From: a virus
Strand: one strand, 5' to 3'
Virus record (IMG/VR): IMGVR_UViG_3300025834_000005
DNA length: 64,000 bases
Within the stretch, counting starts at the first letter, position 1; each line of letters opens with the position of its first letter. Positions 6,307 through 53,861 of this stretch are shown piece by piece. The notes beneath the pieces are model-generated. The model did no database searches. It was given only the letters and a program-made list of their open reading frames with translations, and was not told the DNA's origin. A program made the position numbers and the translations under genes.

Positions 6307-6317
6307 AGCTTTTTTTT

Positions 6318-7112
6318 TTAAAATCCTTGTATTAATATTTCACCGTATTTGATTCCATCAAATCCATATTTTTTAGCCTTTTCAGCGATTGCTTTACATT
6401 TCAAATTAAACTCACTAATATTATTCTCTTGTGAAATAGCATTAAAGTTTACATGAGGAAACCATATCCTCGCTAATACATCCACAGGATTCTGACTGCT
6501 TTTATAAGAGACACCCAATTTATCAGTATCTAAAATATTGTCGAACTCAATTTCATATTTTTTCATACCCTCTTTAGGTGATAATGTGAAAAAATTGCCG
6601 TTAGTTGAATTATCCTTAAAATTATCTTTACGATAACCTATAAGTTTAACAACGTTCATCGAATCGCCGTCAATATCAGCCTCCTCAATAGTACCCTCAA
6701 TAGAATCTAAAAAACTATTCGGAACATTGCTATTCTCAGCTTCCTTTTGTTGATCGTAATCATATATATCCTGTATTTTATTTAAAAGTCTACAAGCATT
6801 TTTATGATCAAGGTCTACAAGTACGGCTTTAATAGTTTTCTTACCAGCATATAGCGACTTAACAAGTCTATGATGACCATCGAGAACGAATAATTCATTA
6901 TTAATCCAAATAGGATTTTCATCGTCATCGATATTTGCATCATCAACCTCATGTGAAAAAGTAATACCCTGTAAAGCTTTTAATATTGAAGGATTGATGT
7001 CAATAATTCTACCGTTCACCCCTTCAGCACCAAGTTTATCGATAACGATATCAAATGGAGCATTTACTTGAGGTAAATACGATGGTCTATGTTGCATGTC
7101 TATTGTACTCAT
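6318..7112 (-). CDS. ParB-like nuclease (ParB/Srx N-terminal) domain protein
   Basis: 264 aa. ...LFVLDGHHRLVKSLYAG... contains the DGHHR signature of the ParB/sulfiredoxin fold. It lies directly downstream of the polyvalent protein gene. Confidence 0.6.
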   Translation of the reverse strand: MSTIDMQHRPSYLPQVNAPFDIVIDKLGAEGVNGRIIDINPSILKALQGITFSHEVDDANIDDDENPIWINNELFVLDGHHRLVKSLYAGKKTIKAVLVDLDHKNACRLLNKIQDIYDYDQQKEAENSNVPNSFLDSIEGTIEEADIDGDSMNVVKLIGYRKDNFKDNSTNGNFFTLSPKEGMKKYEIEFDNILDTDKLGVSYKSSQNPVDVLARIWFPHVNFNAISQENNISEFNLKCKAIAEKAKKYGFDGIKYGEILIQGF

Positions 7113-14513: not shown

Positions 14514-17500
14514 TTAAAATGAATCCACATCAATCACATCAGTATCATCAGGTCGAGCATCAGCCTCTATGCCCTCAATAAAGGTGTCAAGCATTGATAA
14601 ACCTTCGTCACCATAAGCTACAACAAACTCCTCAAGTTTCTTAAACTCTAAACTGAACTGCTTCTTAAATTTAGCATAATATCGAACTCTTTTATTGTTC
14701 TTATTCTCTATAAATAATTCCTTATCAGTTTTCTCACTTATTGAAGCCTTTAAATTCTTTAACTTATCTTCGACTGATTTACGCTTCTCTTCGATCATCA
14801 ATTCGGTTTCTGATTTAGGAACGTCCTTAACCTCTTTAACCATTTTTATATAAGAACCGTTATGAAATCCTACCCAATACTGTAAGTTATTCTTTATTAG
14901 TATGTAATCGCCTTTAACATGTTTTTCGTTAATAGATTTAATCAAAGGCTTCCCAGCATCAATCATTTTCTGATTAACAAATTTCAATGCACTCTCATAA
15001 ACATCAAAGTATACCATATTTTCAGGAGTAACATGAAAGCCATCCCAAATCAATCGTGGGTCATAGCCAGTTTTATTCCAGAATATTGCCTCACGATCTT
15101 CAAGCTGTAACGATTCTTCGATACTATCCAAAGGATAACTATCGAGAGTTAACTCATGATCCATGAATACATTCTTTTTCAATTCCTCAATAACAACACT
15201 TTTACCAAATGTGTCTTTGGTTTTTTTCTTAACGATCTTCGCAAGAATCTGTCCAGATATTTCGGGATTAAATCCAGCTAACAGGATAGCAACCCTTTTA
15301 TTAAAAGCGGCTAAGTATTTCTGAACGTTATAGTCACCTGTCATATTAGGATTCATCGCTAAATCAGATGCATGTATAAGCTTTGAGTATAACTCACCAG
15401 TCTTTTCATCCCTACCCGAACTACTATCAGCAACCTTTTTGCCTGTATTAATCTGATAGACAACGCTATCAATCTCAGGCTCTGGTGGCATATAATTAGA
15501 TATTAACTTCATTTTCTGTTCGATTGACCAGCCTTTAGCAGAATTATCGAGATTTAACTCGTCAAAATGCTCATTAAAAAGTTCAGAGGCAATATGGTTA
15601 CGTTCCTCAATTAAGAGTTCCATATGAGCTTGTTTAGGCTTTTTAGAACCATTTTTAGTATTACCTCTATTAATGTACTGGTCTAATTTAACCTTAACCT
15701 TATTCTTACTCGCAATCTTTTTCATTGGGATTTGTTGATAATATAATTGATCAACATAATCATAATAGTAGTTTACAAAATCAACACCCCTACCGTGAAG
15801 AACCATATCAAGTCCTTTATCTATGAATTCCTCAATATACTCGGACATTACCTTTGATTTAATAGTAACGCCGACCATCTTGATTTTCTCCTTCATCTTA
15901 CCAGATTTCTTATCCTTTGATTCGGACATGATGGCATAGTTATTTCTCGATAAATTCAAGCATGATATAAATTCACCATCATTATCAACACTGATATAAC
16001 TTTGTTTTTCACGAATTTTTGCAGCAATTTGTTCCTGATCATTATATTTATCGATCAAGGCAGTGATACCAGTTTTACCCTTGAATTTCCATGCTTCCTC
16101 AATAGGAATAGGAACTTCAACCATATAATCCAAAACATCAACATTATCGCCGATAATTATATTAGTGGTATCAGGTATTTGAAAGTTCACACCGTCAGTA
16201 ATAGCTAACAAAGGAACGCACTTATAATCACTAAACCACGCAATAGCATGTCTAAGATGAAGCCTACCAGTACATGTGATACGTGCAGCACAGATATTAT
16301 CTGACCAGTTAAATGATACACCTGAACCTAAAGCACCGAATAATGAGTTATTTAAAATCTTGATAGGTAATTGCTTAATCTTAAACATTTTTCTATCCTC
16401 AGTCGTAAGAGTCTGATTAGTATACTTATGATAAGTATCATGGTCGATCTGACTTAAGATATATACCTCTTCTTCGTTAATTTCATCACTATTCGCCAGT
16501 TTTTTATAGATATTTCTGGTTGTAGTTAAATAAAATAGCATCTTTTTAATAACGCCAGTAATGTCAAAGATCGGAAAGATATCATCGGTTAACTGAATCA
16601 TAGGATACAGTGAAGCGTAGTCAATTTTCACCCATCTTCTGGTAAAACCAGTTCTAAAACACCTTGAAAGTCCGCCTGAAAACCCTTCCTTCTTTTCAGA
16701 ATATGGTATAGCAACACCATTATCATAACTCCATGCTGTCAACAGTAAGTTCCAGATTGATGCAGTTCCCATAGTACAAACACGCTGATATGTGGTTGGC
16801 ACAATTTTAGCAAGCATGAACGATGATTGATTATACAATTCATCGACTTGTTCGGTTTCCCATAAGTCATCAAGAAGATACTGCTTGATAATACTCTGAC
16901 CATCAATAAGCTTAAACATCTTACGAGGAATAGCCTCAGCTTTAAGCCATACTACGAATTCTTTATTATCAGCAAACAGCTTCTTTTTAGCGTCATTATA
17001 TTGATCATCGGTATAATTACCCCTATTAAGCTGTAAACTATATAATTCGCCTCCAACTTCCTGTAATTCAGCTGGAATTTCAATATAAGCATTATTATCA
17101 TCAATGAAAAAAAGTTTATTATCGTAATAAAAATCAGATATAACATCACCCTCAACATACATTCTATTCGCTTTAGCAATGCCCTCATGTTTTGATATAT
17201 ATTTCAGCTTTGTGTTCTTAATTTCAGTATTAACAGCCGCTGTCCTTTTTGCCGCATGCATAATATCGATAATCGAATAACCCCACATTTCAGTAGCAAC
17301 ATATTTATCAGATACGTTACCGTATTTTACTGAGACATTAGGTCTTCTTTTGATAGGCGTACTACGTTTATCAACAGCCATTGGGATTCCAGATAAATCC
17401 ATGTTTAATATCTCGGCTCTTCCTAATATAAAGTCAAAGTCAAAGTTTTCAGAATTATAGCCACATATAACAGCTGGCTGTAGATACATTAAAAGGTTGA

Positions 17501-18203
17501 AAAAATCCTGAATAAGGTTTCGCTCTTCTTGGTCATCATCCTTTTTCTTAGCTTCAAGAATGATCTCAAAGCCACGATTATCACGAACACCGATAGCGAA
17601 CATTCGTTTCAACTGATATTTTAAACCAGTTGTCTCGATATCGAAGACTACTTTATGAACGTCCTTATATTCCTCAAATCCTTTGAATAGTCTTGATTTT
17701 GTGGACATAAAAAACTGTTCGGTAGTTCTCGGAGAAAAGAAAAGATCACGGTATAAGTAAACTGGTTCATCCCTCTCATCTTTAATAACCCTACCACGCT
17801 CATCTTTCAATTTTTCATATGGATTAACATTCGCATCCTTTAAGAAATTAACAATTGAGTTGTATGACTTGTTACTCGTAAGCTTATAGCAATAGCCATC
17901 AATTAGTCGTCGCTGATTACCTGTCTCAAGTTTAGTGATCTCAACGCCATATTGAGCCAGCTTATTCTCAAGCAAATCAGGCATTTGGCTAAATAAATTA
18001 ACACCATTTTTCTCCAAATCCTTACAAAACATAAACGGTTGGTATTGTATTTTCGCAATCCTCGGTTTTGTGTTCGGCTCATGTATTACACATTCAGCGT
18101 AGTTGAAATTAGGGTTTGTCTCAACGTTTACAATATATTTTAAATCGTCATTATAGCCCTCAAGAAAGCCTTTTATCTCGCTTAAAACAGCTGCTTTATC
18201 CAT
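14514..18203 (-). CDS. DNA polymerase, family B
   Basis: 1229 aa. Exo I VFDIETTG; Exo II YNSENFDFDF; Pol motif A DYASLYPM; motif B KILNNSLFGALG; an apparent motif C variant LLAITDGVNF. There is a long C-terminal extension of about 300 aa. Confidence 0.9.
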   Translation of the reverse strand: MDKAAVLSEIKGFLEGYNDDLKYIVNVETNPNFNYAECVIHEPNTKPRIAKIQYQPFMFCKDLEKNGVNLFSQMPDLLENKLAQYGVEITKLETGNQRRLIDGYCYKLTSNKSYNSIVNFLKDANVNPYEKLKDERGRVIKDERDEPVYLYRDLFFSPRTTEQFFMSTKSRLFKGFEEYKDVHKVVFDIETTGLKYQLKRMFAIGVRDNRGFEIILEAKKKDDDQEERNLIQDFFNLLMYLQPAVICGYNSENFDFDFILGRAEILNMDLSGIPMAVDKRSTPIKRRPNVSVKYGNVSDKYVATEMWGYSIIDIMHAAKRTAAVNTEIKNTKLKYISKHEGIAKANRMYVEGDVISDFYYDNKLFFIDDNNAYIEIPAELQEVGGELYSLQLNRGNYTDDQYNDAKKKLFADNKEFVVWLKAEAIPRKMFKLIDGQSIIKQYLLDDLWETEQVDELYNQSSFMLAKIVPTTYQRVCTMGTASIWNLLLTAWSYDNGVAIPYSEKKEGFSGGLSRCFRTGFTRRWVKIDYASLYPMIQLTDDIFPIFDITGVIKKMLFYLTTTRNIYKKLANSDEINEEEVYILSQIDHDTYHKYTNQTLTTEDRKMFKIKQLPIKILNNSLFGALGSGVSFNWSDNICAARITCTGRLHLRHAIAWFSDYKCVPLLAITDGVNFQIPDTTNIIIGDNVDVLDYMVEVPIPIEEAWKFKGKTGITALIDKYNDQEQIAAKIREKQSYISVDNDGEFISCLNLSRNNYAIMSESKDKKSGKMKEKIKMVGVTIKSKVMSEYIEEFIDKGLDMVLHGRGVDFVNYYYDYVDQLYYQQIPMKKIASKNKVKVKLDQYINRGNTKNGSKKPKQAHMELLIEERNHIASELFNEHFDELNLDNSAKGWSIEQKMKLISNYMPPEPEIDSVVYQINTGKKVADSSSGRDEKTGELYSKLIHASDLAMNPNMTGDYNVQKYLAAFNKRVAILLAGFNPEISGQILAKIVKKKTKDTFGKSVVIEELKKNVFMDHELTLDSYPLDSIEESLQLEDREAIFWNKTGYDPRLIWDGFHVTPENMVYFDVYESALKFVNQKMIDAGKPLIKSINEKHVKGDYILIKNNLQYWVGFHNGSYIKMVKEVKDVPKSETELMIEEKRKSVEDKLKNLKASISEKTDKELFIENKNNKRVRYYAKFKKQFSLEFKKLEEFVVAYGDEGLSMLDTFIEGIEADARPDDTDVIDVDSF

Positions 18204-18240
18204 TTATTCTTTTATTAGTTAATTTTACACTTATCATCGC

Positions 18241-20031
18241 TCACAAATATTTATTTTTAATTCTATTAATAACATCGCTAAAAACCGATTCGGTTGCCTT
18301 GGATTCATATATCTCATTATCCATAACAATCGTTATCTCCCTTCTCTTACCCTCAATAGCGTCATAAACATATTCATCAATACTATCACGAACAATCGTT
18401 GGGTATATATTGACAACGTCTTTTTGACCAATTCTGTGACATCTATCGGCAACCTGATCATACTCGCCCACAGAATAGGGAAGAGACATTATAATCATTT
18501 TACTCGCTGCTGTGAGTGTTAATCCATAATTAGCTGTTTGTATTGTAGCTAAAAATATTTTTATATCACTCTGAGGGTCTTGAAATTGCTTTTTAAATTC
18601 CTCTCTTTCCTCTACAGTTTGATCACCTGTGTGCAGCACTGCAATATTACCATAAATTTTCTTAAACTCATGCAAACTTTCCTTAAAATAATCAACAATA
18701 ATTACCTTCTCGCCTGTTTCAAGTATAGAGTCGACAATTTCTGTGACAGATTTAATCTTAAAGCCAGCTGTTAATTGTCTAAGCCTAAGCATTGTAGTTA
18801 GGTGATTTTTTGCTGGGTTTGCGAAAATTTCGGTTGCGACATTTTTTTCAACATCCTCATAAATTTTCATTTCAGCATCACTAAGCTCGAATATCGTCTT
18901 CTGATAAATCTTATCGGGTAAGTCTTTTAATACCTCTGATTTTCGTTTCCTATGAGTGTACGGTGAAATTTTATAATATAATTCTTCAAGTCTTTTTTCT
19001 CCATCGGTATCAGTTTTCCATCCGAAACCGCCGATCTCATATGTCATCCCACAATAATACTCATAGAAATGCTTCTTAGTAGCAAAATCGAGAGGAGATA
19101 TTTGATTTAAAACGGAATACAACTCATATGCCCTGTTTGGTGCTGGAGTACCAGATAAATAAATCTTACTCGGTTTATTATCTGTAAAGATTTTTTCATT
19201 AAAAATCCTCTTATAATTCTGGTACGTGTTTGTATCTGTGTTTTTAAGCTTCTGGCATTCGTCGCATATCACAGCATTAATACTACCTATTTTTAATTTC
19301 TCCCACTTATGTAACATCTTTGTTTTATCACTTGGGTTGAAGAAATCATAATTAGTAATTATATATTTTGCCTCATCTATCGTACATGTGTTTCTCTTCC
19401 AATTAACAATATATGCTTTACTATTAGTAAAGTTCGTAACCTCATTATAGTAATTGAATTTAAGTGAGTTTGGAGTTACAACGATTACCTTTTTAAACTT
19501 ATTCATTTCAACGTAAAGTATTGAGCTTAATGTCTTACCTAAACCCATTTCATGCGAAATTAAAGCACTTCTCGTTTCATTCATAAACATAGCAGCGATG
19601 ATCTGATGTGGATACAGCTTAATAGGTATTTTTATCAATGCATGCATTTGCTCCGAATAATTCACATAAGTTGTCTCAAGCTCAATTTTAAACTTATCCC
19701 ATATGATTTTTTTAGCCTCAAGATCAGCAATAAGACTCAATTTATCAACCTCAATCTTCTCATGTTTCTTATACATATCGATGAAAACCTTACGGCTGTC
19801 CATAGAACCAAAATCGAAATGAATATACTCAGAACCTTTAAAACCTTTTATTAATGTGATTAGTCCGTCAACACTTACGTCCCAACATACTTTAGCTGGA
19901 TTCCATTTACGATCACTCGCATCAAGTTCTTTAATTTTATCTTTCAACTCCTCATTGTACATGAATTTAACGTAATACCATGATCTTCTGGGTATACGTT
20001 CGCAAAATACAATTAATTTAAAATCTGACAT
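18241..20031 (-). CDS. SNF2-family helicase/translocase
   Basis: Motif I HEMGLGKT, motif II DECQKLKN, motif V QTANYGLTLT, motif VI DRCHRIGQ. I place the start at M19 of the track ORF (MSDFKLIV..., ATG at 20031), because the 54-nt N-terminal extension reads through a TAnnTTTG promoter box (20055-20062). Confidence 0.85.
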   Translation of the reverse strand: MSDFKLIVFCERIPRRSWYYVKFMYNEELKDKIKELDASDRKWNPAKVCWDVSVDGLITLIKGFKGSEYIHFDFGSMDSRKVFIDMYKKHEKIEVDKLSLIADLEAKKIIWDKFKIELETTYVNYSEQMHALIKIPIKLYPHQIIAAMFMNETRSALISHEMGLGKTLSSILYVEMNKFKKVIVVTPNSLKFNYYNEVTNFTNSKAYIVNWKRNTCTIDEAKYIITNYDFFNPSDKTKMLHKWEKLKIGSINAVICDECQKLKNTDTNTYQNYKRIFNEKIFTDNKPSKIYLSGTPAPNRAYELYSVLNQISPLDFATKKHFYEYYCGMTYEIGGFGWKTDTDGEKRLEELYYKISPYTHRKRKSEVLKDLPDKIYQKTIFELSDAEMKIYEDVEKNVATEIFANPAKNHLTTMLRLRQLTAGFKIKSVTEIVDSILETGEKVIIVDYFKESLHEFKKIYGNIAVLHTGDQTVEEREEFKKQFQDPQSDIKIFLATIQTANYGLTLTAASKMIIMSLPYSVGEYDQVADRCHRIGQKDVVNIYPTIVRDSIDEYVYDAIEGKRREITIVMDNEIYESKATESVFSDVINRIKNKYL

Positions 20032-20054
20032 GAATGTGTGAATATGTGTGGGTA

Positions 20055-20062
20055 CAAAAGTA
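20055..20062 (-). promoter_or_regulatory. Host-type Bacteroidota -7 promoter box (TACTTTTG)
   Basis: Same 12-mer TATACTTTTGTA as at 2740-2751 and 23000-23011. It lies 23 nt upstream of the SNF2 ATG (20031) and directly after a terminator. Confidence 0.5.
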
Positions 20063-20069
20063 TACAAAA

Positions 20070-20098
20070 AAAACGTAAACCACAACAGTTTACGTTTT
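20070..20098 (-). terminator. Intrinsic terminator (hairpin + T8)
   Basis: The minus strand reads AACGTAAAC-tgttgtg-GTTTACGTT followed by TTTTTTT. It lies after the stop of 20119-20508. Confidence 0.65.
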
Positions 20099-20118
20099 TC
20101 ATTGTCAAATATATTTTA

Positions 20119-20508
20119 TTAAATCACAGTTGTCTTTGTGATGGAATCAAAAACAGTAATTTTAATAACACCGCTATTCGGAATAGATATTTTCATAGGA
20201 AAATCCACGTTTAAAAAATCTAATTTAAACTCTCCGATAAAATTTCCTGTTTTAGCTGTATCATCCAAAGTAAAATTATACTCAATCGAATACTTTGGAA
20301 CAGCCAGATAATCATTATCATTTCGAAATTTAATACAGCCACTAACATTTGCTATTGCAAATTCATCAGTATCCTCATCATACATTGAGAATGTGACAGC
20401 TGCATTATTTATGTCATCATCAGAAATGCCATATTTATCTAAAAATTCCTGATCTACGGCGTACTTTAAGGTCGGAAGAGTACTATCCTTTTTTATAAAA
20501 AAATTCAT
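20119..20508 (-). CDS. Hypothetical beta-rich protein, BppU_N/Ig-like pattern (probable virion protein)
   Basis: I place the start at M10 of the track ORF (MNFFIKKD..., ATG at 20508), because the GTATTTATAT motif (20524-20533) lies inside the longer ORF. The pattern ...AAVTFSMYDEDTDEFAIANVSG...TGNFIGEFKLDF resembles phage BppU N-terminal Ig-like domains. Confidence 0.45.
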   Translation of the reverse strand: MNFFIKKDSTLPTLKYAVDQEFLDKYGISDDDINNAAVTFSMYDEDTDEFAIANVSGCIKFRNDNDYLAVPKYSIEYNFTLDDTAKTGNFIGEFKLDFLNVDFPMKISIPNSGVIKITVFDSITKTTVI

Positions 20509-20523
20509 AATATAAGTTCTTTT

Positions 20524-20533
20524 ATATAAATAC
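20524..20533 (-). promoter_or_regulatory. Phage-specific (late-type) promoter motif GTATTTATAT
   Basis: Exact 10-mer, 15 nt upstream of the ATG at 20508. Confidence 0.55.
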
Positions 20534-20538
20534 AAACA

Positions 20539-22326
20539 TTATACGTTTTTAGGGTCTATACCGCCTTTTATTACATTCTGTGTTTGTCTCGATTGCATCA
20601 AAAAAGCGTTTACATCGTCTTTTGTATTCTCAGACATATGCTTATCATTAAGATTAATAGTCTCTTGCTTTATTTCAGGTATCTCGACACTATTTACATT
20701 AATTTCAATCGTTGTGCTTATTCTTGCAGCGATCTCACTTGTAATACTTCGATCAGGCGGAATCTTATCATCCACAGGATCTGCTTCGATAAACGTTAAA
20801 CCCTCTTCTGGTATAGGTGTCACAACTAAAGGCTTTGGACTGTCGAGAACATTTGTGAGACCGTCATGTTCAAAATCATGTTCCATTTCAGTACCTGTTT
20901 TATTTTTAAAACTCTCAAACTTGTCATTTGTGGCATCAATTTTACTCTCTGTCAGTTTTAAACTTCTACTATATTTGTACATATAGTCTTCATCATTAAT
21001 AACAATATTCATTTTATCGTTATCAAAGATACAATCTTTAAATGTTTGACCATCCTTTGCGAATCTCGCCTTGATAATTCGAATGTTAGCCAAATTAGCA
21101 TCTTTAGATGCTGGTGGCTTAGCTACCGACATGAAAAAGTGTGCTTTCTGTAAACGTTTAATACTTCCGCCAGCTTGACTTGCTTCAACAAACTCGCTAT
21201 CTAAGCCAGCACGTGAACTCTGAATAGCAGACCACGCAGGTATATCTAAGTCAGCAGCAAGTGCTAAAAAAGATTTAACAATTTGCAACTCAGCTTCCGT
21301 TCTATCAGCAGATTTTTTATTAGGTTCAAGACAATCTAAATAGTCTAATACTAATAAGTCGAATTTTATGCCAGTTTTTTTCTCGTAACGTGTGATGAAA
21401 TTTTTCACGTCGTTCATAGTGGTATTTTCCTGACTCATTCGTTTTATAACGATTTTACCGCCAGTCTTTTTTGACACATATTCATAACACTTCTGTCGAA
21501 CCTCAACATTTCTATCATCCATTTCGCTCAATCCGATCTTAGACCATATAGCATAATGTTTTCTCTTTATCTGTGCCTCTGTATCCTCAAAAATAATTTG
21601 TAATACGTTTTTATCGACATCATATCCAGTATTTGCAATCTTCGTAAGCAAAGTACTCTTACCAACACCCGATGGTGTTAAAATTAAGCCTATTTCGCCC
21701 TTACCAAGTCCGCCACCAGTCAAAGCATCCAATACAACAACACCTGTTGGAATTACCTCTCTAAACTCTTTGCTTAGTACGTCATCTATATCTTCAAGAA
21801 CTTCAGTTCCATAATCCTCAACGTCGCCGATTTCAGATATTAAACGTATTTTCTCCTCAATAGCCGCTAATGTTTCCTTTTTACGGATTTCGCCATTTTT
21901 GGTTTTGTCGAGAATGAACTCACCGAGTTTCCTATATTCCTGTTGTTTAATGAAAAATGTGGTCTCTAATTGGATGGCTTCTCCATTGTGATCTATATCA
22001 CGGTTTAGAACTCTATCATTCCAATTTTGAATTCTTTTAATATTGGCGAATAATAACTCCTCTTCGATTAGATTGTTAGGAGTTTTAAACTTATTTATAG
22101 CAAATATTATACTATCATTTTGAAGATTTGGTGCTTTGGCGAACTCATTATAATAGTTAGTCATTATAATGAATAATCGCTTCATAGTGGGATCATCAAA
22201 ATACATTGCACTTAATCTTGGGAGTGTTCTGATGGCAAATTCAGGTTCTACCATTAATTGCCACATTAAATGCTGTTGAAATTCAGGCCCTAAGTATTTC
22301 GTCAGGGTATTTTCAATTTGTTCCAT
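20539..22326 (-). CDS. DnaB-like replicative DNA helicase
   Basis: 595 aa. Walker A LILTPSGVGKSTLL; Walker B LLVLDYLD; RecA-fold C-terminal domain preceded by a DnaB-N-like helical region. Long acidic/low-complexity C-terminal tail. Confidence 0.75.
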   Translation of the reverse strand: MEQIENTLTKYLGPEFQQHLMWQLMVEPEFAIRTLPRLSAMYFDDPTMKRLFIIMTNYYNEFAKAPNLQNDSIIFAINKFKTPNNLIEEELLFANIKRIQNWNDRVLNRDIDHNGEAIQLETTFFIKQQEYRKLGEFILDKTKNGEIRKKETLAAIEEKIRLISEIGDVEDYGTEVLEDIDDVLSKEFREVIPTGVVVLDALTGGGLGKGEIGLILTPSGVGKSTLLTKIANTGYDVDKNVLQIIFEDTEAQIKRKHYAIWSKIGLSEMDDRNVEVRQKCYEYVSKKTGGKIVIKRMSQENTTMNDVKNFITRYEKKTGIKFDLLVLDYLDCLEPNKKSADRTEAELQIVKSFLALAADLDIPAWSAIQSSRAGLDSEFVEASQAGGSIKRLQKAHFFMSVAKPPASKDANLANIRIIKARFAKDGQTFKDCIFDNDKMNIVINDEDYMYKYSRSLKLTESKIDATNDKFESFKNKTGTEMEHDFEHDGLTNVLDSPKPLVVTPIPEEGLTFIEADPVDDKIPPDRSITSEIAARISTTIEINVNSVEIPEIKQETINLNDKHMSENTKDDVNAFLMQSRQTQNVIKGGIDPKNV

Positions 22327-22353
22327 TATAAGTTATTGTGAAAGTAATATGTT

Positions 22354-22394
22354 ATAAAAAATCTGGCAACCGCTTATTGAATAAACAATTGCCA
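22354..22394 (-). terminator. Intrinsic terminator (hairpin + T6)
   Basis: The minus strand reads TCTGGCAA-(19-nt loop)-TTGCCAGA followed by TTTTTT. It lies after the stop of 22425-22973. Confidence 0.5.
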
Positions 22395-22424
22395 GAATTT
22401 TATATGTTTATGACCTTCTGTTAA

Positions 22425-22973
22425 TTAAATTGAGGCGTATTCCATTGCCTCGAAATTTTCCGAAATAAATACCATATCACATTTTTTTATATGATTGTAA
22501 ATTTCGTTTGTGACCGTTTTAACAGCATCTACGATATCAGTAGAATACCTACAGGTCGGGTTAAAACCATTAACATAAAATGTTCTTTCTACAATTGTTT
22601 TACCGTTTACATAAAAACCGATAGAACATGGCACACCTTTAATAGTTTTACCTTCAATCTGATAGGTTACTATAGAAGGATCATAGATAAGATCATTACG
22701 AATATCATCCTCATAAGAGTCAATTATGTCATTAGCATAATTGAAAAGATCATAATGTTTTTCTTCGCCAGTATATGCAAAAGTTTCATAATATCTTTTC
22801 GATAAAGCTTTTTGGAAAAGACCAATAGCTTTAGGTAGAATGTGACGAATGTTAATCGGATATCTAACCTCTGGTGAAAAGTCCGAAGCATCAATCATTT
22901 TTTCGCAAAGTAATATGTCACCCTGAAAAAGTGAAAACTTAAAAATCTTACTAAACTCGTTATCGTTACTCAT
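22425..22973 (-). CDS. Hypothetical early protein (monocistronic unit)
   Basis: 182-aa ORF bracketed by a host-type promoter box (23002-23009) and a hairpin plus T-run terminator (22354-22394). Confidence 0.5.
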   Translation of the reverse strand: MSNDNEFSKIFKFSLFQGDILLCEKMIDASDFSPEVRYPINIRHILPKAIGLFQKALSKRYYETFAYTGEEKHYDLFNYANDIIDSYEDDIRNDLIYDPSIVTYQIEGKTIKGVPCSIGFYVNGKTIVERTFYVNGFNPTCRYSTDIVDAVKTVTNEIYNHIKKCDMVFISENFEAMEYASI

Positions 22974-23001
22974 TATTTATATATTTAGAATTATTACGCT
23001 A

Positions 23002-23009
23002 CAAAAGTA
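23002..23009 (-). promoter_or_regulatory. Host-type Bacteroidota -7 promoter box (TACTTTTG)
   Basis: 12-mer TATACTTTTGTA, 28 nt upstream of the ATG at 22973. TTTC sits at the -33 position. Confidence 0.5.
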
Positions 23010-23038
23010 TACAAAAGAAATTAGAAATGAAAGTCTTT

Positions 23039-24091
23039 TTACTTTTTTCTTTGAGAATTTGTATAATTAGTTAAAAGTTGCTTCTCAAACATAACAACTG
23101 TATAAAAAGGCTCAAGATAATTAACAAAATTTCCGCCTGTGAATATCGTTAAAAAACCATCTTCTATCATCAACTTATACAGGTTCTTACTACCTCTATT
23201 AACAGGTGATAAGGGCATATCTAATTGAGCCAACTCTTCCTTTGCTTGATCGTTTAGAAATGGCTCAGATAGATTCGTAAGCAAATAATTAAGTTTAAGT
23301 CTATCAATGTTATTCAACAGATTCTCAAATATTTTTAAAGGCTTCTGCTTATTGATGATACGTTCTTCGTTAATCACTTTAGCACGTTGGCATATCTCAC
23401 GAACCGTTAATTTTCTGAATTTAATATCTGGAAAATGTTTTATTAATGCACCTTCTTTAATCCCTGCAATCCCTTGAATATTATCGGCAACATCGCCACC
23501 AATGATTTTCATAATCAAGCCATTAGAATAATGGTAATCAAAATCATAATGAAAATTAAGTTTAGTTGTCGGGTGAGGTAGATTCCCGAAAATGATAGTT
23601 ATATTATACTCAAGCAATTGGACAAAATCCCTATCATTTGTGAATAAGAATATTATCTCTTTTTTCGAGTTATACATACAATATGCTGCAATTAAATCAT
23701 CAGCCTCAATTTCATCAACCTCAATTTGACGTATAAATAGTTCCTCAATGTATTGTTGAATACGCTTTTTATTTTTTAAGATTGATTCGTCCTTAGCTTG
23801 TTCTCGTTTTATTTCAGCATCAGTTAACTCTATTTTTGTGTGCCACGATTTATCCTTACGATTAGCCTTATAAGCTCTATCGAGTCTATAACGATCAATA
23901 CCGCCGTTTTCACCGTCCCAACATACAACAACTTTATTTATCTGATGTTCTTTTATTAGCTTTCGAATTGTTGTTAGAAAACCATATAAACCACCAATTG
24001 ATCCAAAAGACGCTGTGTAAGCGTCTTTTGCACCAAAGTATGATCTTTTTAGAAGATAATTACCATCAACCAATAAAGTTCTAATTTCCAT
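23039..24091 (-). CDS. 5'-3' exonuclease / flap endonuclease (RNase H-like, FEN family)
   Basis: LLVDGNYLLKRSYFG, VVVCWDGENGGIDRYRLDRAYKANRK, EADDLIAAY and NDRDFVQLL match the 53EXO/PIN-like motifs of the phage T4 rnh / T5 D15 family. Confidence 0.85.
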   Translation of the reverse strand: MEIRTLLVDGNYLLKRSYFGAKDAYTASFGSIGGLYGFLTTIRKLIKEHQINKVVVCWDGENGGIDRYRLDRAYKANRKDKSWHTKIELTDAEIKREQAKDESILKNKKRIQQYIEELFIRQIEVDEIEADDLIAAYCMYNSKKEIIFLFTNDRDFVQLLEYNITIIFGNLPHPTTKLNFHYDFDYHYSNGLIMKIIGGDVADNIQGIAGIKEGALIKHFPDIKFRKLTVREICQRAKVINEERIINKQKPLKIFENLLNNIDRLKLNYLLTNLSEPFLNDQAKEELAQLDMPLSPVNRGSKNLYKLMIEDGFLTIFTGGNFVNYLEPFYTVVMFEKQLLTNYTNSQRKK

Positions 24092-25179
24092 TAATCCTCT
24101 GTTGATATATCGTTAATCTCTTTTGATTCGAATGTGATATCGTCAGCTGTCATTGAATCGTCATTAAAGATATTCCTGAAATATAGAATATTTTTCTTCT
24201 TATACGCTTCAACGCCATCCTTGTAGATAAATCCATGAGGGGTTGAAATTACTTTCCCTTCCATAGAAATGCCACCCAAATCTCCGTCGACGTGATTTTT
24301 TGCAACGTTTACTCTCGCCTCAATACCATAATGGATTGTACGACCCTTGCTAATCGCTGAAATCTTACTTGTTCCGTGAGCAGCGATACCACCGAAGTGA
24401 TAAATAAGCCTTGAACCGAAATAAAATGTTTCTCCGCCTTTATGTTTAACGCCTCCGCCATTCATATTATCAATCCAAATTTTCTGGATAGCGATAACAG
24501 TGTTTGTGAATTCTTTATCAACCTTCCTACTATTTGGAATAGTATTGTTCAAGAAAGATAAGAAACTCTTTTCATAAGCATTAGCATTCCACATATTATT
24601 CTGTGAAGTTTCTTTAACCTGTGCATTAATCGTAGCATTACAGTTAAGCGTTCCGATTGAGTCGATAGCAAATACTATGTTACGTGGTAACAAGCCAGCT
24701 TCCTGATCATCAACGAATGAATACATACATTTAGCTAAGTCTTCAATTGAAGCCTCTCTACGGTCTTTATCTTGTTTCTTACCAAAGTTTTCAAGTAAAT
24801 ATTCATTATCAATTAAGATAAATTCGCCATCTAAGTCAAAACCCATTTTTGCGAGTCTTTCCATACCCATGTTATTCTCAGTATCGATAATAATTACCAA
24901 ATCACCGTCTTTTTGGGCTGAAACAATACCTTCGCATAATGCTGTAGACTTGCCTGTATTCGAAAATCCCCTACAAAGATTAACATAACCTTTCGCAAAT
25001 CCTGGCAATCCTGTCGCAGTTTCTAAGGCTGCTGACGATTTAATCCAGTATAAAGGCTTATCTGGAACATCTTCACATCCCTTTTTCTTTTTGAAATCAT
25101 TCAGCGAAAAATCTTTTTTTGCCGTAGGTTTTCTCACCGCTATATTAGGCGGTACTACATTTGCATCCTTCTCTTTCAT
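24091..25179 (-). CDS. RecA/UvsX-like recombinase (RecA-superfamily ATPase)
   Basis: GYVNLCRGFSNTGKSTALCEGIVSAQKDGDLVIIIDTENNMGMERLAKMGFD parallels the RecA Walker A region through the ...fiDaE... segment. Walker B is VFAIDSIG. Confidence 0.7.
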   Translation of the reverse strand: MKEKDANVVPPNIAVRKPTAKKDFSLNDFKKKKGCEDVPDKPLYWIKSSAALETATGLPGFAKGYVNLCRGFSNTGKSTALCEGIVSAQKDGDLVIIIDTENNMGMERLAKMGFDLDGEFILIDNEYLLENFGKKQDKDRREASIEDLAKCMYSFVDDQEAGLLPRNIVFAIDSIGTLNCNATINAQVKETSQNNMWNANAYEKSFLSFLNNTIPNSRKVDKEFTNTVIAIQKIWIDNMNGGGVKHKGGETFYFGSRLIYHFGGIAAHGTSKISAISKGRTIHYGIEARVNVAKNHVDGDLGGISMEGKVISTPHGFIYKDGVEAYKKKNILYFRNIFNDDSMTADDITFESKEINDISTED

Positions 25180-42701: not shown

Positions 42702-45209
42702 TTAAGATTTACCTCTTTCGTAGCTTTTCATTCTGTTAATTAAGATCGGTATATTAATAGCTTTAGCTGTGAATCTTTCTCCGTCAATATCTAACGTAAT
42801 ATTAGCCTTCATTGTAACATCTTTATCGGCAAACTCAACCTTTAATGGCTTGCTTAATAATGTTGCTAATTCAGCGAATGCTGATCCACTTTTTGTATTC
42901 ATTTTTGATATTGATGCGACAACATTAGCTATAGCCTCATAATCAGATGCATTACCTGCAAGTGCTGTGTTAATCTCCTTAAATGCAGTTCCAATTTTTT
43001 CAATTTTTGGAGCATATGCTGAGATAGCACCTAATGTGGCAAGTAACCCAATTCCGCCTATCATACCTATACCAGCACCACCCATTGCAAGACCAATAGC
43101 ACCTATACCACTTGCAACGCCTAATAGAGCACCTTCAGAACCTTTTGCAGAATCTATCATCTTACTAAATCCCTCAGCCATATAACCTATACCAGCAGCA
43201 GCGACGCCTATACCAGCACCGATACCTAAAGCCGCTAATCCAAATGCTGCAACAGGTGCGGTAGCAAAAGCAGCAGCCACACCCATGCCTATCATAGTTA
43301 CACCAATAATTCCTATAGTCCAATTTAACTTTGTTAGTTTTTCGCTATCAACATCCTTAATGGCTGAAGCTAACTGGCTTATACCGAGTGCTGCAACACC
43401 TATACCAGCACCTACGCCAGCAGCAGCAGCACCTACGCCTAACCCACCTCTCATCAGTCCCTTACCAACATTAGCATTGCCAGCACCACCGATTCCGCCA
43501 CCTAATCCGCCAGCACCACTCATAGCACTACCAGCATTTCGTGTAGCTCTCGCACCTCTTCCTAAACTTGTACCACCGAGCATATTTCTACCAGAGGCTA
43601 TATAAACTATTTTTGATAAAGCAGTTACGCCACCATTTAATAGCACAGCAGCACCAGTTATAATACCAGCAGCTTTTAGAAAATCATGATTTATATTTTC
43701 TTTAAACCATTTAGCGACTGCCTGAAATTTAGGTATAAAGAACTGCATAACATCGTTTACGCCTCTTAGCATCGGTAATAATATGGTTTTAAATGAAGCT
43801 AACGTTGCTTGTAATGCTTCTTCAAATGTTAATGAATCTTTAGCTCTTTGTTCTAATGTCGCTTTTTGTTGTATAAATAAATCTGCCTCAGATTTGGTAA
43901 GATCAGAGATATTTTTAGCTGTCGTCCCAATTATCACTTGAAATTGACCCGATTTAGAATTAAATATAGCTGAACCTTCTATAGCGTCTTTATTCTCTTT
44001 AGACATTCCAGAACCAAGCATATTTCTACGCATTTTTGAAATGTCAGCCATTCTTAAAGCTTGCTGGGTAAGTTCACCATTCTGTAAACCTAACGACTTC
44101 TCAACGGAAGCCATTCTATCTCTGTCAGCAGGCGATATAAATTTAGAAAATGAACCATCAGCTTGTCTTTGAAAAGTAACAACACCTTTAGTCATCTCAT
44201 TAATCTTCTCTGTAAACTTAGCTGGGTCATTACGTGATAAGAATAGCATTTCAAATGGGTCTGATTTAGCAAATTCTCCGCCCATTACTTGTAAACTGGC
44301 TGCTAATCCTATAGCACCTTCCAATGTTTTTGCTGTATCAATAGCGTTAAACGCTTGACTAAAATCAACATTCATTTTTGTAGCATACGCCGACATCTTC
44401 ATCATACCAGCAACACCACCTTTAAAATTATATAAGTTTAGTTTCTTGAAATTTTCATTAACATTCTTTAATGCTTTAGCTGTATTTATGCCATATTTTT
44501 CGCTTGAATGAACGAATTTTTCAGTCATTTCAAATGTTGTTTGAGCGTCAACACCCATTAACTCAAACTGAGCAGCCATTTTTGTGGCATTCTCAACACC
44601 CAATCCAGTGCCTCTACCGATCTTTACTATATCGACAATCATTTGCTCTGACATGACTCTGGCTCTGCCAGTTTCATCAGCAAATCCTTGCATAACTTGC
44701 TGTACATCGACCAATGAGCCACCCATTTCAGCAACAGACATAGCCGAATTTTCGAAAGACGTCCTAATCATTTCAGCTTTAACGCCAGACATTCCAAGAT
44801 TTAGAATAGTTTGTCTAATGATCTTATCAGAATCCATTAAGCCTTTTATCCAAACGGCTTCTAATTTAGTTTGACTAATTAAGAGGTCTTTAATCTTCTG
44901 ATGCTGCTCAACTCTCTGTTTATCAACCTTTAAATTTTCTTTTGAATTTATAAGATTATCTTTGGCAATTTTTAAAGCTTCTTTTTGGGTATCTGTAGCA
45001 GTTCCATTATTTTTTACAGCTGCTTTTATTATCTTCTCCTGTTTTTTTAATTCGAGAGTTAATATAGCTTCCTGAACTCTATGAGCCTCATCAAGTGCCT
45101 GTATTTTCTTTTTTTGATCGAAAATAGAACTTAGTGTAGCAGCTTGATCATCATAGTACTGCTTCTCAACCTTTAAAAAGTTTATTTCGTCGTCGTAATT
45201 TCTTGCCAT
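42702..45209 (-). CDS. Tail tape measure protein
   Basis: 835 aa. N-terminal coiled coil and a long helical core. Gly/Ala-rich hydrophobic segments (GGLGGGIGGAGNANVGKG..., GVGAAAAGVGAGIGVAALG...). Downstream of a chaperone-like gene that carries a slippery site. Confidence 0.8.
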   Translation of the reverse strand: MARNYDDEINFLKVEKQYYDDQAATLSSIFDQKKKIQALDEAHRVQEAILTLELKKQEKIIKAAVKNNGTATDTQKEALKIAKDNLINSKENLKVDKQRVEQHQKIKDLLISQTKLEAVWIKGLMDSDKIIRQTILNLGMSGVKAEMIRTSFENSAMSVAEMGGSLVDVQQVMQGFADETGRARVMSEQMIVDIVKIGRGTGLGVENATKMAAQFELMGVDAQTTFEMTEKFVHSSEKYGINTAKALKNVNENFKKLNLYNFKGGVAGMMKMSAYATKMNVDFSQAFNAIDTAKTLEGAIGLAASLQVMGGEFAKSDPFEMLFLSRNDPAKFTEKINEMTKGVVTFQRQADGSFSKFISPADRDRMASVEKSLGLQNGELTQQALRMADISKMRRNMLGSGMSKENKDAIEGSAIFNSKSGQFQVIIGTTAKNISDLTKSEADLFIQQKATLEQRAKDSLTFEEALQATLASFKTILLPMLRGVNDVMQFFIPKFQAVAKWFKENINHDFLKAAGIITGAAVLLNGGVTALSKIVYIASGRNMLGGTSLGRGARATRNAGSAMSGAGGLGGGIGGAGNANVGKGLMRGGLGVGAAAAGVGAGIGVAALGISQLASAIKDVDSEKLTKLNWTIGIIGVTMIGMGVAAAFATAPVAAFGLAALGIGAGIGVAAAGIGYMAEGFSKMIDSAKGSEGALLGVASGIGAIGLAMGGAGIGMIGGIGLLATLGAISAYAPKIEKIGTAFKEINTALAGNASDYEAIANVVASISKMNTKSGSAFAELATLLSKPLKVEFADKDVTMKANITLDIDGERFTAKAINIPILINRMKSYERGKS

Positions 45210-45225
45210 TGTTCTAATCTATATC

Positions 45226-45235
45226 ATATAAATAC
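45226..45235 (-). promoter_or_regulatory. Phage-specific (late-type) promoter motif GTATTTATAT
   Basis: Exact 10-mer, 16 nt upstream of the tape measure ATG (45209) and directly after a hairpin. Confidence 0.6.
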
Positions 45236-45236
45236 A

Positions 45237-45269
45237 AAAGGAACTAAATTATAATAACTTAGTTCCTTT
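45237..45269 (-). terminator. Hairpin/terminator between the chaperone region and the tape measure promoter
   Basis: 11-bp stem AAAGGAACTAA / TTAGTTCCTTT with an 11-nt loop. On the minus strand it is followed by TGTATTTAT (U-rich) and runs into the late motif. Confidence 0.5.
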
Positions 45270-45272
45270 TTT

Positions 45273-45431
45273 TTATTTATTTGATGCTCTTGCTCTTTGA
45301 CTTTCTATTTCATCGTTTTCTTTTTCCATTAAGTGTAGAAAGTATCTTCGTTTCCATACAGGTATGCTTTCCACATATTCGGCTTGAAATTTACCATGCT
45401 TTGTTAGAATATAAATTTCGTCATTTACCAT
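45273..45431 (-). CDS. Small ORF (52 aa from an internal ATG). Alternatively the -1 frame extension of the upstream chaperone-like gene.
   Basis: Hand translation of the -1 frame after the T9 run gives PKQLAGDYKKMVNDEIYILTKHGKFQAEYVESIPVWKRRYFLHLMEKENDEIESQRARASNK*, 62 codons open with the stop at 45273-45275. It is below the ORF-track length cut-off. Confidence 0.35.
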   Translation of the reverse strand: MVNDEIYILTKHGKFQAEYVESIPVWKRRYFLHLMEKENDEIESQRARASNK

Positions 45432-45448
45432 TTTCTTATAGTCACCTG

Positions 45449-46318
45449 CTAACTGTTTGGGAAAAAAAAATCTATACCGAGAGTTAATGTTGATGTGAAT
45501 TTGTATCCATCATCAGCTGTAAATGTATATCTAAGATCAACATCTGGTGATACTTCACCAATTTTTTTACGAATTGTAAATGAGTCTAAGGCTGGCATAG
45601 CATCGACAAACTTATCAATATAACCTCTGTCGGTATTACCATCAATTGATATAATACTTGCTTTAAGTCTTAGTGTGCCATATGAGCTGAAAGATTCTTG
45701 AAAGGCTGATTTCATGGCTTCTGCTCTTTTTGATACGATATCATCCTCATTATATGTTAAAATCCTAAATTTTACGGTTTTCTTTCTCATGGGAATATTA
45801 ACTGTAAAATGTCCCTCAGCATCTGGTTCTTCACCTATGGATTTGTATGTTAAATCTAATAGGTTTACAACTGATTTAAATGGTACACCTGTCCTTGGAT
45901 CGGTTACGATAACTGAATAGTCAGCACCGTATGATGACGTCCTTAAAAAGAGTATTAACGCATTTCTATCGCCTTGAAGTAAATCTTGAATGTTTACATT
46001 CGGTGTTTTCACCTTTCTTCTTAATAATAAATCGAGAACAGTACCATTTTCAATTAAAGACGGAGTTGTTAAAAGGTCTTCGTCCTTTGACGTCATGTAT
46101 TCGATGTTAATTTCACTTAAATGATTATCATAATACATTCCCTTTGAAGGTAAACTTACTGTTTCGTAAGGTATAATGAGATCAGGGTCAACTTCTTTAC
46201 CCATTACATTATTAAAACCGCCTGTCATAGGAATAACATCTGCGCTTTTTACATCAGTATTTTGTTTATATCCTTGTATAGCATTTTTGAGTGCTTGTGC
46301 TCCTGTTTCTTTACCCAT
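45449..46318 (-). CDS. Baseplate-hub assembly / tape-measure chaperone-like protein (T4 gp26-like pattern)
   Basis: 289 aa. ...VSLPSKGMYY...IEYMTSKDEDLL... resembles the T4 gp26 baseplate family pattern as I recall it. It sits immediately upstream of the tape measure gene. A T9 slippery run lies 5 codons before its stop. Confidence 0.4.
   Translation of the reverse strand: MGKETGAQALKNAIQGYKQNTDVKSADVIPMTGGFNNVMGKEVDPDLIIPYETVSLPSKGMYYDNHLSEINIEYMTSKDEDLLTTPSLIENGTVLDLLLRRKVKTPNVNIQDLLQGDRNALILFLRTSSYGADYSVIVTDPRTGVPFKSVVNLLDLTYKSIGEEPDAEGHFTVNIPMRKKTVKFRILTYNEDDIVSKRAEAMKSAFQESFSSYGTLRLKASIISIDGNTDRGYIDKFVDAMPALDSFTIRKKIGEVSPDVDLRYTFTADDGYKFTSTLTLGIDFFFPNS
45462..45470 (-). promoter_or_regulatory. 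Candidate -1 programmed frameshift / transcriptional slippage site (T9 run; heptamer T_TTT_TTC)
   Basis: The minus strand reads GAT TTT TTT TTC CCA AAC AGT TAG. The run lies 5 codons before the stop, and the -1 frame is open for 62 further codons. Confidence 0.45.
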
Positions 46319-46431
46319 ATTATATAATTATTTATAATTTTTTATTAATTTAATAATAAATAGTGCTTTTTTCAAAATAAATTCAAGATTCAAAATTCTT
46401 ATGTGTATAATGTAATAAAATTATATGTCAT

Positions 46432-47220
46432 ATGGGAAAAAAGAATACTAAACTCGAAGATACAAAGCAAGAGGAAAGGGATTATCAAAGCATCGTTAAT
46501 GGTGCTGATAAGAGTATTTCAACCTTGAAATTCGAGATAAATAAAATTATTACGAGCGATATTAAAGTAGAGGCAAAAAATGATAGCCAGAAAAAAATCA
46601 TTAAATCGATTAAATCTAATGAGGTTACGATTTGTTCTGGATTTGCTGGAACTGGTAAAACATATGTAGCGTTGGGTATTGCTCTTGATTTGCTTAGAAA
46701 GGCAAATACACCCTATAGAAGAATTTATTTATTGAAATCTGTTACGCCTTTAAAAGGTGAGGAGGTTGGATTTCTAAAGGGTGGTATTGAAGAAAAGATT
46801 GATCCTTTTATGTGGAGTTTTAATTTAAATATTACTAAATTAATTCCAGAGAAAGCATTTAAATCTTTAACAGACGCTAATTTCATTAAAGCTGTTCCGC
46901 TAACATATTTAAGGGGAACAACCTTGGATGATTGTATTATGATTTTAGATGAGACTCAGAATGTCGCAATTAAAAATGTTAGAACAGCGATGACACGTAT
47001 AGGTACTAATTGTAAATTGATTATGCTTGGTGACGTTGATCAGATAGATTTAAAGAATGAAACGGAAAGTGCTTTAAAACCGATTATTGACATGTTTGGC
47101 GATACGCCGAGTATCGGAGTTATCGAAATGGATGTTAATGATAAAAATGTTAGAAATCCATTAATAGCATTAATTGAAGCAAAATTTAAAGAATATTTTA
47201 ATAAAACAAATAAAAAATGA
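46432..47220 (+). CDS. phoH: PhoH-like ATPase
   Basis: Walker A CSGFAGTGKTYVALG and Walker B IMILDETQN, followed by ...MLGDVDQIDL, the typical PhoH pattern. Confidence 0.85.
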   Translation: MGKKNTKLEDTKQEERDYQSIVNGADKSISTLKFEINKIITSDIKVEAKNDSQKKIIKSIKSNEVTICSGFAGTGKTYVALGIALDLLRKANTPYRRIYLLKSVTPLKGEEVGFLKGGIEEKIDPFMWSFNLNITKLIPEKAFKSLTDANFIKAVPLTYLRGTTLDDCIMILDETQNVAIKNVRTAMTRIGTNCKLIMLGDVDQIDLKNETESALKPIIDMFGDTPSIGVIEMDVNDKNVRNPLIALIEAKFKEYFNKTNKK

Positions 47221-53826: not shown

Positions 53827-53861
53827 AAAAAAAAATCGTATAAATAATATACGATTTTTTT
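53827..53861. terminator. Bidirectional intrinsic terminator
   Basis: AAAAAAAAATCGTATA-aataa-TATACGATTTTTTT lies between the convergent spike gene (+) and the tube gene (-). Confidence 0.7.

Follow-up and report, generated by a model that had tools for sequence, protein, structure and literature searches.

We propose that a gene in the viral record IMGVR_UViG_3300025834_000005 (IMG/VR), analysed here as one window of 64,000 nucleotides (nt), is probably decoded by programmed -1 ribosomal frameshifting, which would yield a short and a long form of a tail assembly chaperone in a manner analogous to G/GT of phage lambda. The gene lies immediately before a probable tail tape measure gene and its product belongs to the protein family of T4 gp26 and gp51. 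The elements that define the proposed recoding are the following.

45449-46318, minus strand: short-form gene, an open reading frame (ORF) of 289 amino acids (aa) for a hub/tail assembly chaperone of the T4 gp26/gp51 family (PF12322); its zero-frame TAG is at 45449-45451
45459-45472, minus strand: shift site GAT TTT TTT TTC CC, with a run of nine T (T9) at 45462-45470 (A9 on the plus strand)
45273-45461, minus strand: extension in the -1 frame, 62 codons (PKQLAGDYKK...RARASNK), closed by TAA at 45273-45275
45429-45431, minus strand: candidate ATG of a 52-aa ORF (45273-45431), a rival start

The 289-aa ORF ends ...GGT ATA GAT TTT TTT TTC CCA AAC AGT TAG, and two phased -1 heptamers, U_UUU_UUU and U_UUU_UUC, are found inside the T9 site. 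Translation of the -1 frame from CCC at 45459-45461 gives FFPKQLAGDYKKMVNDEIYILTKHGKFQAEYVESIPVWKRRYFLHLMEKENDEIESQRARASNK, which ends in K and is followed by TAA; joining this 62-residue extension to residues 1-286 of the ORF produces a conceptual long form of 348 aa. An earlier note, made from the letters of this DNA alone, had reported the T9 run, a 62-codon open -1 frame and a TAA at 45273-45275, all of which were confirmed on the minus strand. It had rightly placed the run near the stop, although the distance is three codons and not five, since the T-run passes into TTC as its last codon and CCA AAC AGT TAG then follows. In the mechanism that we propose, most ribosomes would stop at the TAG at 45449-45451 and release the 289-aa short form, and some would slip by -1 on the U9 at 45462-45470 by tandem re-pairing of tRNA-Phe on U_UUU_UUU or U_UUU_UUC. 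The slipped ribosomes would then read CCC AAA CAG and onwards, 62 codons to the TAA, giving the 348-aa form with the junction ...GIDFFF-PKQLAGDYK.... An alternative genetic code in which TAG is a sense codon was rejected, as it gains only seven zero-frame codons before a TAA and the adjacent long ORFs are intact under the standard code.

Long A/T runs are scarce in the window, which has a G+C content of 33%. Runs of at least eight are about twofold depleted (8 observed against 17.8 expected under an order-3 Markov model) and only four reach at least nine, T9 at 45462-45470 being the only one in a coding region. The other three, at 2186-2194 (A9), 6310-6319 (T10) and 53827-53835 (A9), lie in short intergenic gaps beside gene ends. 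Homopolymers are error-prone in sequencing and the conceptual fusion fits the family profile from end to end, which would also be expected if the run had the wrong length in the assembly or if a single 348-aa ORF had recently been split by a frameshift. The identical 289-aa product is, however, encoded on 14 independently assembled contigs (ENA and JGI assemblies), and a homopolymer sequencing error, against which the earlier note had proposed a check, is therefore excluded. Of these contigs, 11 fall in the 0.2-1 Mb class and two measure about 328 kb; the virus is an uncultivated jumbo phage.

A blastn search with the locus against 50,697 phage records gave no match, and all comparisons were thus made at the protein level. 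Scanning of viral contigs in IMG/VR provided a close set of 26 loci, corresponding to 13 distinct sequences with 55-76% protein identity. The shift site GAT TTT TTT TTC CC is present in 26/26 of these loci, with the zero-frame end DFFFPNx before the stop, and a -1 extension of 45-69 residues, conserved at the protein level, follows in all of them. The longest invariant block among 14 distinct sequences is the 14-nt GATTTTTTTTTCCC. With two further loci, L037 and L038, the clade comprises 16 distinct T9 loci; T9 and the -1 extension are retained in all 16, so that the conservation in relatives, on which the earlier note had made its proposal depend, is seen in every member of the clade. Downstream of the run, the three codon positions of the -1 frame have entropies of 0.53/0.18/0.96, a pattern shared with the zero frame upstream (0.61/0.38/1.01). 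The variation is of the coding type and dominated by the third position, and the extension is, as judged from these alignments, under purifying selection. Both the selection on the extension and the persistence of the split in 16/16 members argue against a decaying gene.

The extension could also be reached without recoding, as an independent 52-aa gene that starts at the ATG at 45429-45431, possibly by termination-reinitiation 18 nt past the TAG; the locus would then make two polypeptides, the second acting in trans. The ATG-initiated ORF exists and is called as a gene of 51-62 aa in several assemblies, AGGTGA lies 10 nt upstream of its ATG, and small downstream ORFs are annotated in the phages HSE3, Xoo-sp13, OLIVR5 and Mel-JY01. 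A word-indexed search with the extension alone retrieved 14 small ORFs and no fused protein in the close clade. AGGTGA is, however, more simply explained as the codons for Ala-Gly-Asp, as Shine-Dalgarno motifs were not seen at the genes near the locus. The start codon itself is not conserved, being replaced by TTG in L022 and by CTT in L025 (two of 14 clade members), and the ten codons between the shift site and the ATG are constrained in the -1 frame, with an entropy of 0.38/0.04/0.73. Moreover, a TGA closes the -1 frame just before the run in L011, L022, L026 and L038, and the shift is therefore confined to a window of 19 nt that starts at the T-run. Because of the constraint ahead of the ATG, the 19-nt window and the loss of the ATG in two members, the extension appears to be read by entry from the upstream ORF, and the Met at 45429-45431 is probably an internal codon of it.

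To place the window in its wider family, a profile-guided scan of IMG/VR yielded 587 confirmed relatives, of which the best 80 were examined with a hidden Markov model (HMM) of the extension; together with the close set and eight isolated phages they make up 96 distinct loci. In every one of them the extension lies out of frame, at a T-rich FF motif. A +1 shift is needed at 78 of the 96. At 70 of the 78 the site is a phased TTT TTT T with GG CC or AC CC after it, the exceptions with only TTT_T, TTT_C or CTT_T being L079, L109, L075, immuto, LR756508, HSE3 and GXN1. The remaining 18 of the 96 need a -1 shift, 16 through T9 and two through a phased T_TTT_TTC (S-WAM1 and OLIVR5). The split is also found in isolated phages (immuto, Mel-JY01, HSE3, GXN1, Xoo-sp13, S-WAM1 and OLIVR5); in Xoo-sp13 the extension is too diverged for the HMM and a -1 shift at GCT TTT TTT ATT was judged by eye. 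An exhaustive phmmer search with the fusion against 1.84 billion representatives identified 2,246 family members at E <= 1e-3. Among the best 150 of them, 148 matches end at or before query residue 290, the full-length representatives doing so at their own C-terminus. That the zero frame ends at the junction in so many members, and that the extension is out of frame in every locus, leaves an artefact or a decaying gene with next to no probability.

The initiation codons of the wider family also bear on the independent gene. Of 95 distinct extensions, 89 have no Met ahead of the conserved core, and the first Met lies inside the core in 60 of 77 sequences of the +1 clade; independent initiation is therefore ruled out as a general explanation. 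In addition, the zero frame and the extension frame always overlap at the slippery T-rich motif, and where the extension is in frame (T4 gp51 and the representatives P0333 and P0370) it is covalently joined to the PF12322 body. An independent 52-aa gene starting at this ATG, which had been raised as the alternative when the site was first noticed, is thus disfavoured and we consider it very improbable.

In the sister clade (L039-L114; also L001 at 3700-3720 and L002 at 3740-3762) the motif reads NNN TTT TTT TGG CCN (FFWP) or TTT TTT TAC CCT (FFYP), and its T7 is retained in G+C-rich contexts, a few members being reduced to TTC TTT T, TTT C or CTT T. In S-WAM1, a T4-like Synechococcus phage (L115, 3650-3865), the extension occupies an unannotated gap of 190 nt after the gp26 homolog, with the -1 shift at TCT TTT TTC, and in the Agrobacterium phage OLIVR5 (L116, 3660-3860) it bears the annotation 'baseplate hub assembly catalyst' (46 aa). 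The S-WAM1 gap and the OLIVR5 ORF are probably mis-annotated frameshift extensions.

The same 348-aa protein would be made if RNA polymerase stuttered on T9/A9 and added one U, the resulting U10 giving GAU UUU UUU UUU CCC AAA.... T9 falls in the length class of known bacterial cases of such transcriptional slippage, for example Shigella mxiE, which is mentioned in PMC5009743. Consistent with a polymerase-based mechanism, the run is invariant across 16 distinct loci although runs of at least eight are otherwise avoided and the other three of at least nine are intergenic, and no RNA stimulator for ribosomal shifting was found. The invariance is nevertheless uninformative and was discarded as evidence for polymerase slippage, given that T2-T9 are fixed by three Phe codons and by the phased heptamer, and CCC by Pro in both frames, which leaves only the T of GAT free, and GAT already makes up 76% of Asp codons. 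Relatives appear to achieve the recoding with T6C, TTT_C or CTT_T, where slippage of the polymerase is implausible. Since the TTT_T, TTT_C, CTT_T or T6C runs (the last in S-WAM1 and OLIVR5) are too short for polymerase slippage, a ribosomal mechanism is favoured for the family as a whole, and runs as short as TTT_T, TTT_C and CTT_T still suffice for +1 re-pairing of the P-site tRNA. Ribosomal slippage therefore appears, from the distribution of these sites, to be the more economical mechanism family-wide, and transcriptional slippage at the window's own T9 is in our view unlikely.

The assignment of the protein to its family was made on combined evidence. The 289-aa ORF scores 22.6 bits against PF12322 (T4_baseplate), just below the cut-off of 24.5, and matches phrog_150 'baseplate hub' with an E-value of 1.5e-6 (28.8 bits, profile positions 12-233). 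With the 348-aa fusion the match to phrog_150 improves to 1.3e-8 (35.7 bits) and covers positions 12-281 of 282; because the fusion carries the match to the end of the profile, the extension is to be regarded as the normal C-terminus of part of the PF12322 family. PF12322 is precomputed on close homologs, including one that is 76% identical, and on the combined evidence, to which the hhalign match with the gp51 family and the fold matches given below also belong, we take the window protein to be a member of the family, its sub-cut-off PF12322 score notwithstanding. It had been a concern that 289 aa is longer than is typical of gpG proteins; the length difference stands, and the concern is resolved by the protein belonging to the T4 gp26/gp51 family and not to classical gpG, and by the proposed frameshift being family-wide.

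An AlphaFold (AF2) model of the fusion, with a predicted local distance difference test score (pLDDT) of 84, has a confident core at residues 45-285, a linker at the junction and a separately folded tail. The junction falls in the disordered linker, residues 289-303, where the pLDDT is about 42, and the added segment is thus predicted to be a separate small domain on a disordered linker. Fold searches in BFVD returned models annotated as 'baseplate hub subunit / hub assembly chaperone' with E-values of 4e-24 to 4e-17, the target template modelling scores (TM-scores) for ranks 1 and 3 being 0.84-0.86. No sequence relatives of the family profile were found in the PDB, nor did the fusion model match any solved structure there. 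Residues 1-45 (46184-46318, minus strand) form an extra N-terminus, predicted to be disordered, that is present in the window's clade and missing from most family members, and the clade is without the Cys pairs (CxxC-like) found in T4 gp26/gp51, HSE3, GXN1 and Xanthomonas jumbo phages. Representatives of 350-506 aa (P0256, P0260, P0261, P0264 and about 40 more) match the query in two parts with a break near residue 200, which suggests a large insertion, a domain or a mobile element, inside the PF12322 body of some lineages.

The family also offers a comparison with T4. The 208-aa gp26 ends ...GLKEFFELL at the FF motif of the window's short form and consists of PF12322 only, without an extension. 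The 249-aa gp51 has PF12322 over residues 1-201 (177.5 bits, full profile) and 48 further residues; its gene adjoins gene 26 on the other strand, and the two proteins are paralogous (BLASTP E-value of 2e-6, about 20% identity). The extension HMM matches the extreme C-terminus of gp51, residues 219-249. When a profile of 95 conceptual fusions was used, the alignment to gp51 passed through the junction, whereas that to gp26 stopped there. An hhalign comparison of the fusion with an alignment of gp51 homologs gave one continuous match of 232 columns (probability 94.6%, E-value 6.8e-8), and the extension against the gp51 tail alone gave a collinear match of 51 columns (E-value 3e-4) with a score of 23.0, the best of 30 column shuffles reaching 16.0. 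A gp51-type model (pLDDT 91) and the fusion model have in common a final tail of a short helix plus a long helix, and gp51 homologs carry a second precomputed Pfam domain, PF28602. From these comparisons, T4 appears to encode the short and the long form as two genes, gp26 and gp51.

If both forms are required, a lineage with an in-frame long form should also have a separate short form, and we tested this prediction. Among the best 150 of the 2,246 family members, in-frame long forms are found only in P0333 and P0370, and each has a tandem PF12322 paralog immediately upstream. The upstream copies end in ...KLFWPN.. before the stop and match the fusion profile to the junction only, whereas in the downstream copies the match continues across the extension; identity within the pairs is 34-36%. 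Thus, where the shift site is missing, the short and the long form are encoded by separate genes. The tandem paralogs were located at L119 4101-5966 and L120 986-2734, and also in L121 and L122, in an arrangement independent of the T4 pair. A second gp26/gp51 paralog was looked for in the window and none was found, and its single gene would therefore have to supply both forms.

The position of the gene in its neighbourhood was examined with respect to three further elements.

42702-45209, minus strand: an 835-aa protein, probably the tape measure of the tail and presumably the chaperone's client
45236-45270, minus strand: terminator-like hairpin with a 16-bp stem and a T tract, between the extension stop and the start of the tape measure gene
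46329-46336, minus strand: TATAAATA, a T4 late-promoter-like motif, 10 nt upstream of the chaperone ATG

The probable tape measure gene begins 64 nt past the extension stop. Its 835-aa product has Gly/Ala-rich hydrophobic segments in the C-terminal part and matches the same family, PHROG 167, as the annotated tape measure protein of the Bacillus phage HSE3; NCBIfam and Pfam scans of the ORF gave no match. We consider it a probable tape measure protein from its sequence. In 88 of the 90 related loci whose flank is long enough, a large ORF (at least 250 aa, typically 550-900) comes directly after the extension, and a tube homolog is directly upstream in 70 of 76 loci of the +1 clade. In the phages immuto (Flavobacterium), Mel-JY01 (Microcystis) and HSE3 the order runs from the sheath gene through the tube gene, the gp26-like gene and a small ORF or gap to the tape measure gene. 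The slot before the tape measure gene is the canonical position of a tail assembly chaperone. The G/GT-type frameshift that had been put forward as a candidate in the earlier note is therefore supported by its conservation, by the -1 coding signature that starts at the shift site and by its position before a probable tape measure gene.

The hairpin that the earlier note had placed after the extension stop is confirmed at 45236-45270, but the promoter motif it had assigned to the tape measure gene is not, as that copy of TATAAATA, at 45227-45234, is on the opposite strand. Two terminator-like sites were found in the region against 0.4 expected, and the hairpin could determine how much chaperone transcript is made relative to that of the tape measure gene. 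The motif TATAAATA, which corresponds to the T4 late-promoter consensus, occurs 41 times in the window against 18.7 expected, a number that 0 of 100 shuffles reached; the leader implied by the copy 10 nt ahead of the chaperone ATG would be very short. A PhoH-like gene (46432-47220, plus strand) is divergent from the chaperone gene, and a replication/recombination module at 14514-25179 (minus strand), with a DNA polymerase, two helicases, an exonuclease and a UvsX-like recombinase, lies upstream within a block of the same orientation.

A number of observations weigh against our interpretation, both as regards the frameshift itself and as regards its comparison with G/GT. The fusion product, the slippage that would produce it and the efficiency of that slippage are what we infer from the data above, as are its ribosomal rather than transcriptional origin and the molecular role of each form. 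The T9 run is long enough for slippage of the polymerase, with the same protein as the result. U_UUU_UUU reportedly shifts less readily in E. coli than A_AAA_AAG (PMC5009743). With RNAalifold, no conserved stimulatory RNA was found downstream of the site in 14 sequences (-2 kcal/mol, no covariation), and the z-score for the single sequence was -0.44; the sole recurrent pairing joins the U-run to an A-rich Lys-Lys stretch further downstream, and the ribosome would melt it. An upstream Shine-Dalgarno-like stimulator is not visible in the aligned clade sequences either, where only a Gly codon, GGN, is conserved. Because there is no conserved RNA stimulator, the efficiency of frameshifting may be low or modest. 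Several other phage G/GT sites are likewise without an RNA stimulator.

On the side of homology, none of the classical tail assembly chaperone (TAC) families of Pfam (Phage_TAC_*) matches any of 11 diverse members at E-values up to 10. Foldseek leads in the PDB, the HK97 chaperone 2ob9 (probability 0.44) and 3klu, are weak, and with the gp51 model they did not recur. Homology to classical tail assembly chaperones, to which leads for the HK97 protein and YqbN had pointed, was accordingly dropped and, since the fold match to 2ob9 is absent with the gp51 model, the link to G/GT is one of analogy and not of homology. The homology of the extension to the gp51 tail is, taken alone, moderately significant, and the tail models agree only for the last two helices, the preceding segment being different. 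The tape measure assignment rests on a weak match to phrog_167 'tail length tape measure protein' (E-value 2.1e-5), and a BLASTP comparison of the 835-aa ORF with the immuto tape measure protein was not significant. Finally, the window's clade is without the upstream tube gene and has the divergent PhoH gene in its place.

A frameshift in the chaperone gene before the tape measure gene is textbook knowledge for long-tailed phages, and P2 E/E+E' is the counterpart in contractile-tailed phages. The frameshift of the lambda tail assembly chaperone gpG/gpGT was reportedly described by Levin in 1993 and by Xu, Hendrix and Duda in 2004. By analogy with lambda gpG/gpGT and P2 E/E+E', the targets of the body that is common to both forms would be the nascent hub and the tape measure protein, whose gene follows immediately; the long form, the rarer of the two, would have a further binding activity in its tail. 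What we suggest about the product ratio, the binding partners and how the tail acts is drawn from the lambda G/GT paradigm (PMC5009743) and from PMC3004832, in which T4 gp26 and gp51 are listed as 'hub assembly chaperones' and not as structural proteins. In their 2016 review, Atkins et al. state that G-T frameshifting is conserved among long-tailed phages 'except T4' (PMC5009743). On balance, we lean towards the view that the PF12322 family is the tail/hub assembly chaperone of a very large contractile-tailed group and that it obeys a G/GT-like rule of a short form plus a rare long form in three interchangeable ways, namely a -1 shift on U9 or U_UUU_UUC, a +1 shift on UUU_UUU_U, and gene duplication. 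T4 would then be no exception, gp26 being G-like and gp51 GT-like, and gp51, the 'catalytic' hub assembly factor, would obtain its first concrete role.

The recoding principle, the presence of gp26 and gp51 in one Pfam family and the occasional labelling of the small ORF as 'hub assembly catalyst' were already known. New are the proposed recoding in the PF12322 family, the three interchangeable ways in which its outcome would be reached and, for the T4 exception, a plausible resolution; a search of full-text literature, subscription-only literature being outside the search, yielded no account of frameshifting in the gp26 family or of gp26/gp51 as the equivalent of G/GT. If confirmed, this would unify the logic of tail-length control and hub assembly across long-tailed phages and provide a mechanism for T4 gp26 and gp51, two proteins that have for decades lacked a clear role. 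It would also correct the annotation of many phage genomes, in which the extension is unannotated, a hypothetical small ORF or a 'hub assembly catalyst', and would make available, for work on the evolution of recoding sites, a natural series of solutions with -1, +1 and no shift.

Compared with known systems, the locus is similar to lambda G/GT and P2 E/E+E' in that the gene directly precedes the tape measure gene (in most PF12322-family members it also follows the tube gene), the slippery site is a few codons before the stop, and a short extension in another frame would be added to a common N-terminal body. As in those systems, the arrangement outlives sequence divergence, with -1 and +1 solutions in different lineages. 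Unlike lambda G/GT, the protein is a PF12322 member of 210-320 aa, whereas the TAC families have roughly 100-140 aa, the window's site is a U-run and not G_GGA_AAG, and the tube gene is not adjacent in the window's clade.

Polymerase slippage on nine-base A/T runs is known from the T9 of Shigella mxiE and the A9 of Thermus dnaX, and the window resembles both in having T9 in a coding region where insertion of one base in the RNA would join the frames and extend the product, but differs in that relatives with much shorter runs show what appears from their sequences to be the same recoding. Among +1 frameshifts, such as those in the structural genes of Listeria phage PSA and at CUU_UGA of prfB, the likeness lies with the sister clade, whose UUU_UUU_U, UUU_C and CUU_U sites allow +1 re-pairing of the P-site tRNA; the window, in contrast, needs a -1 shift and its A site is without a stop codon or a known hungry codon. 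T4 differs from the window in having two diverged paralogs, and its gene 26, which lies on the opposite strand, does not adjoin the tape measure gene (gene 29); the window protein differs from gp26 and gp51 in its extra disordered N-terminal 45 residues and its lack of Cys pairs. Nevertheless, gp26 and gp51 are of the same protein family as the window protein, and both match PF12322 over its full length.

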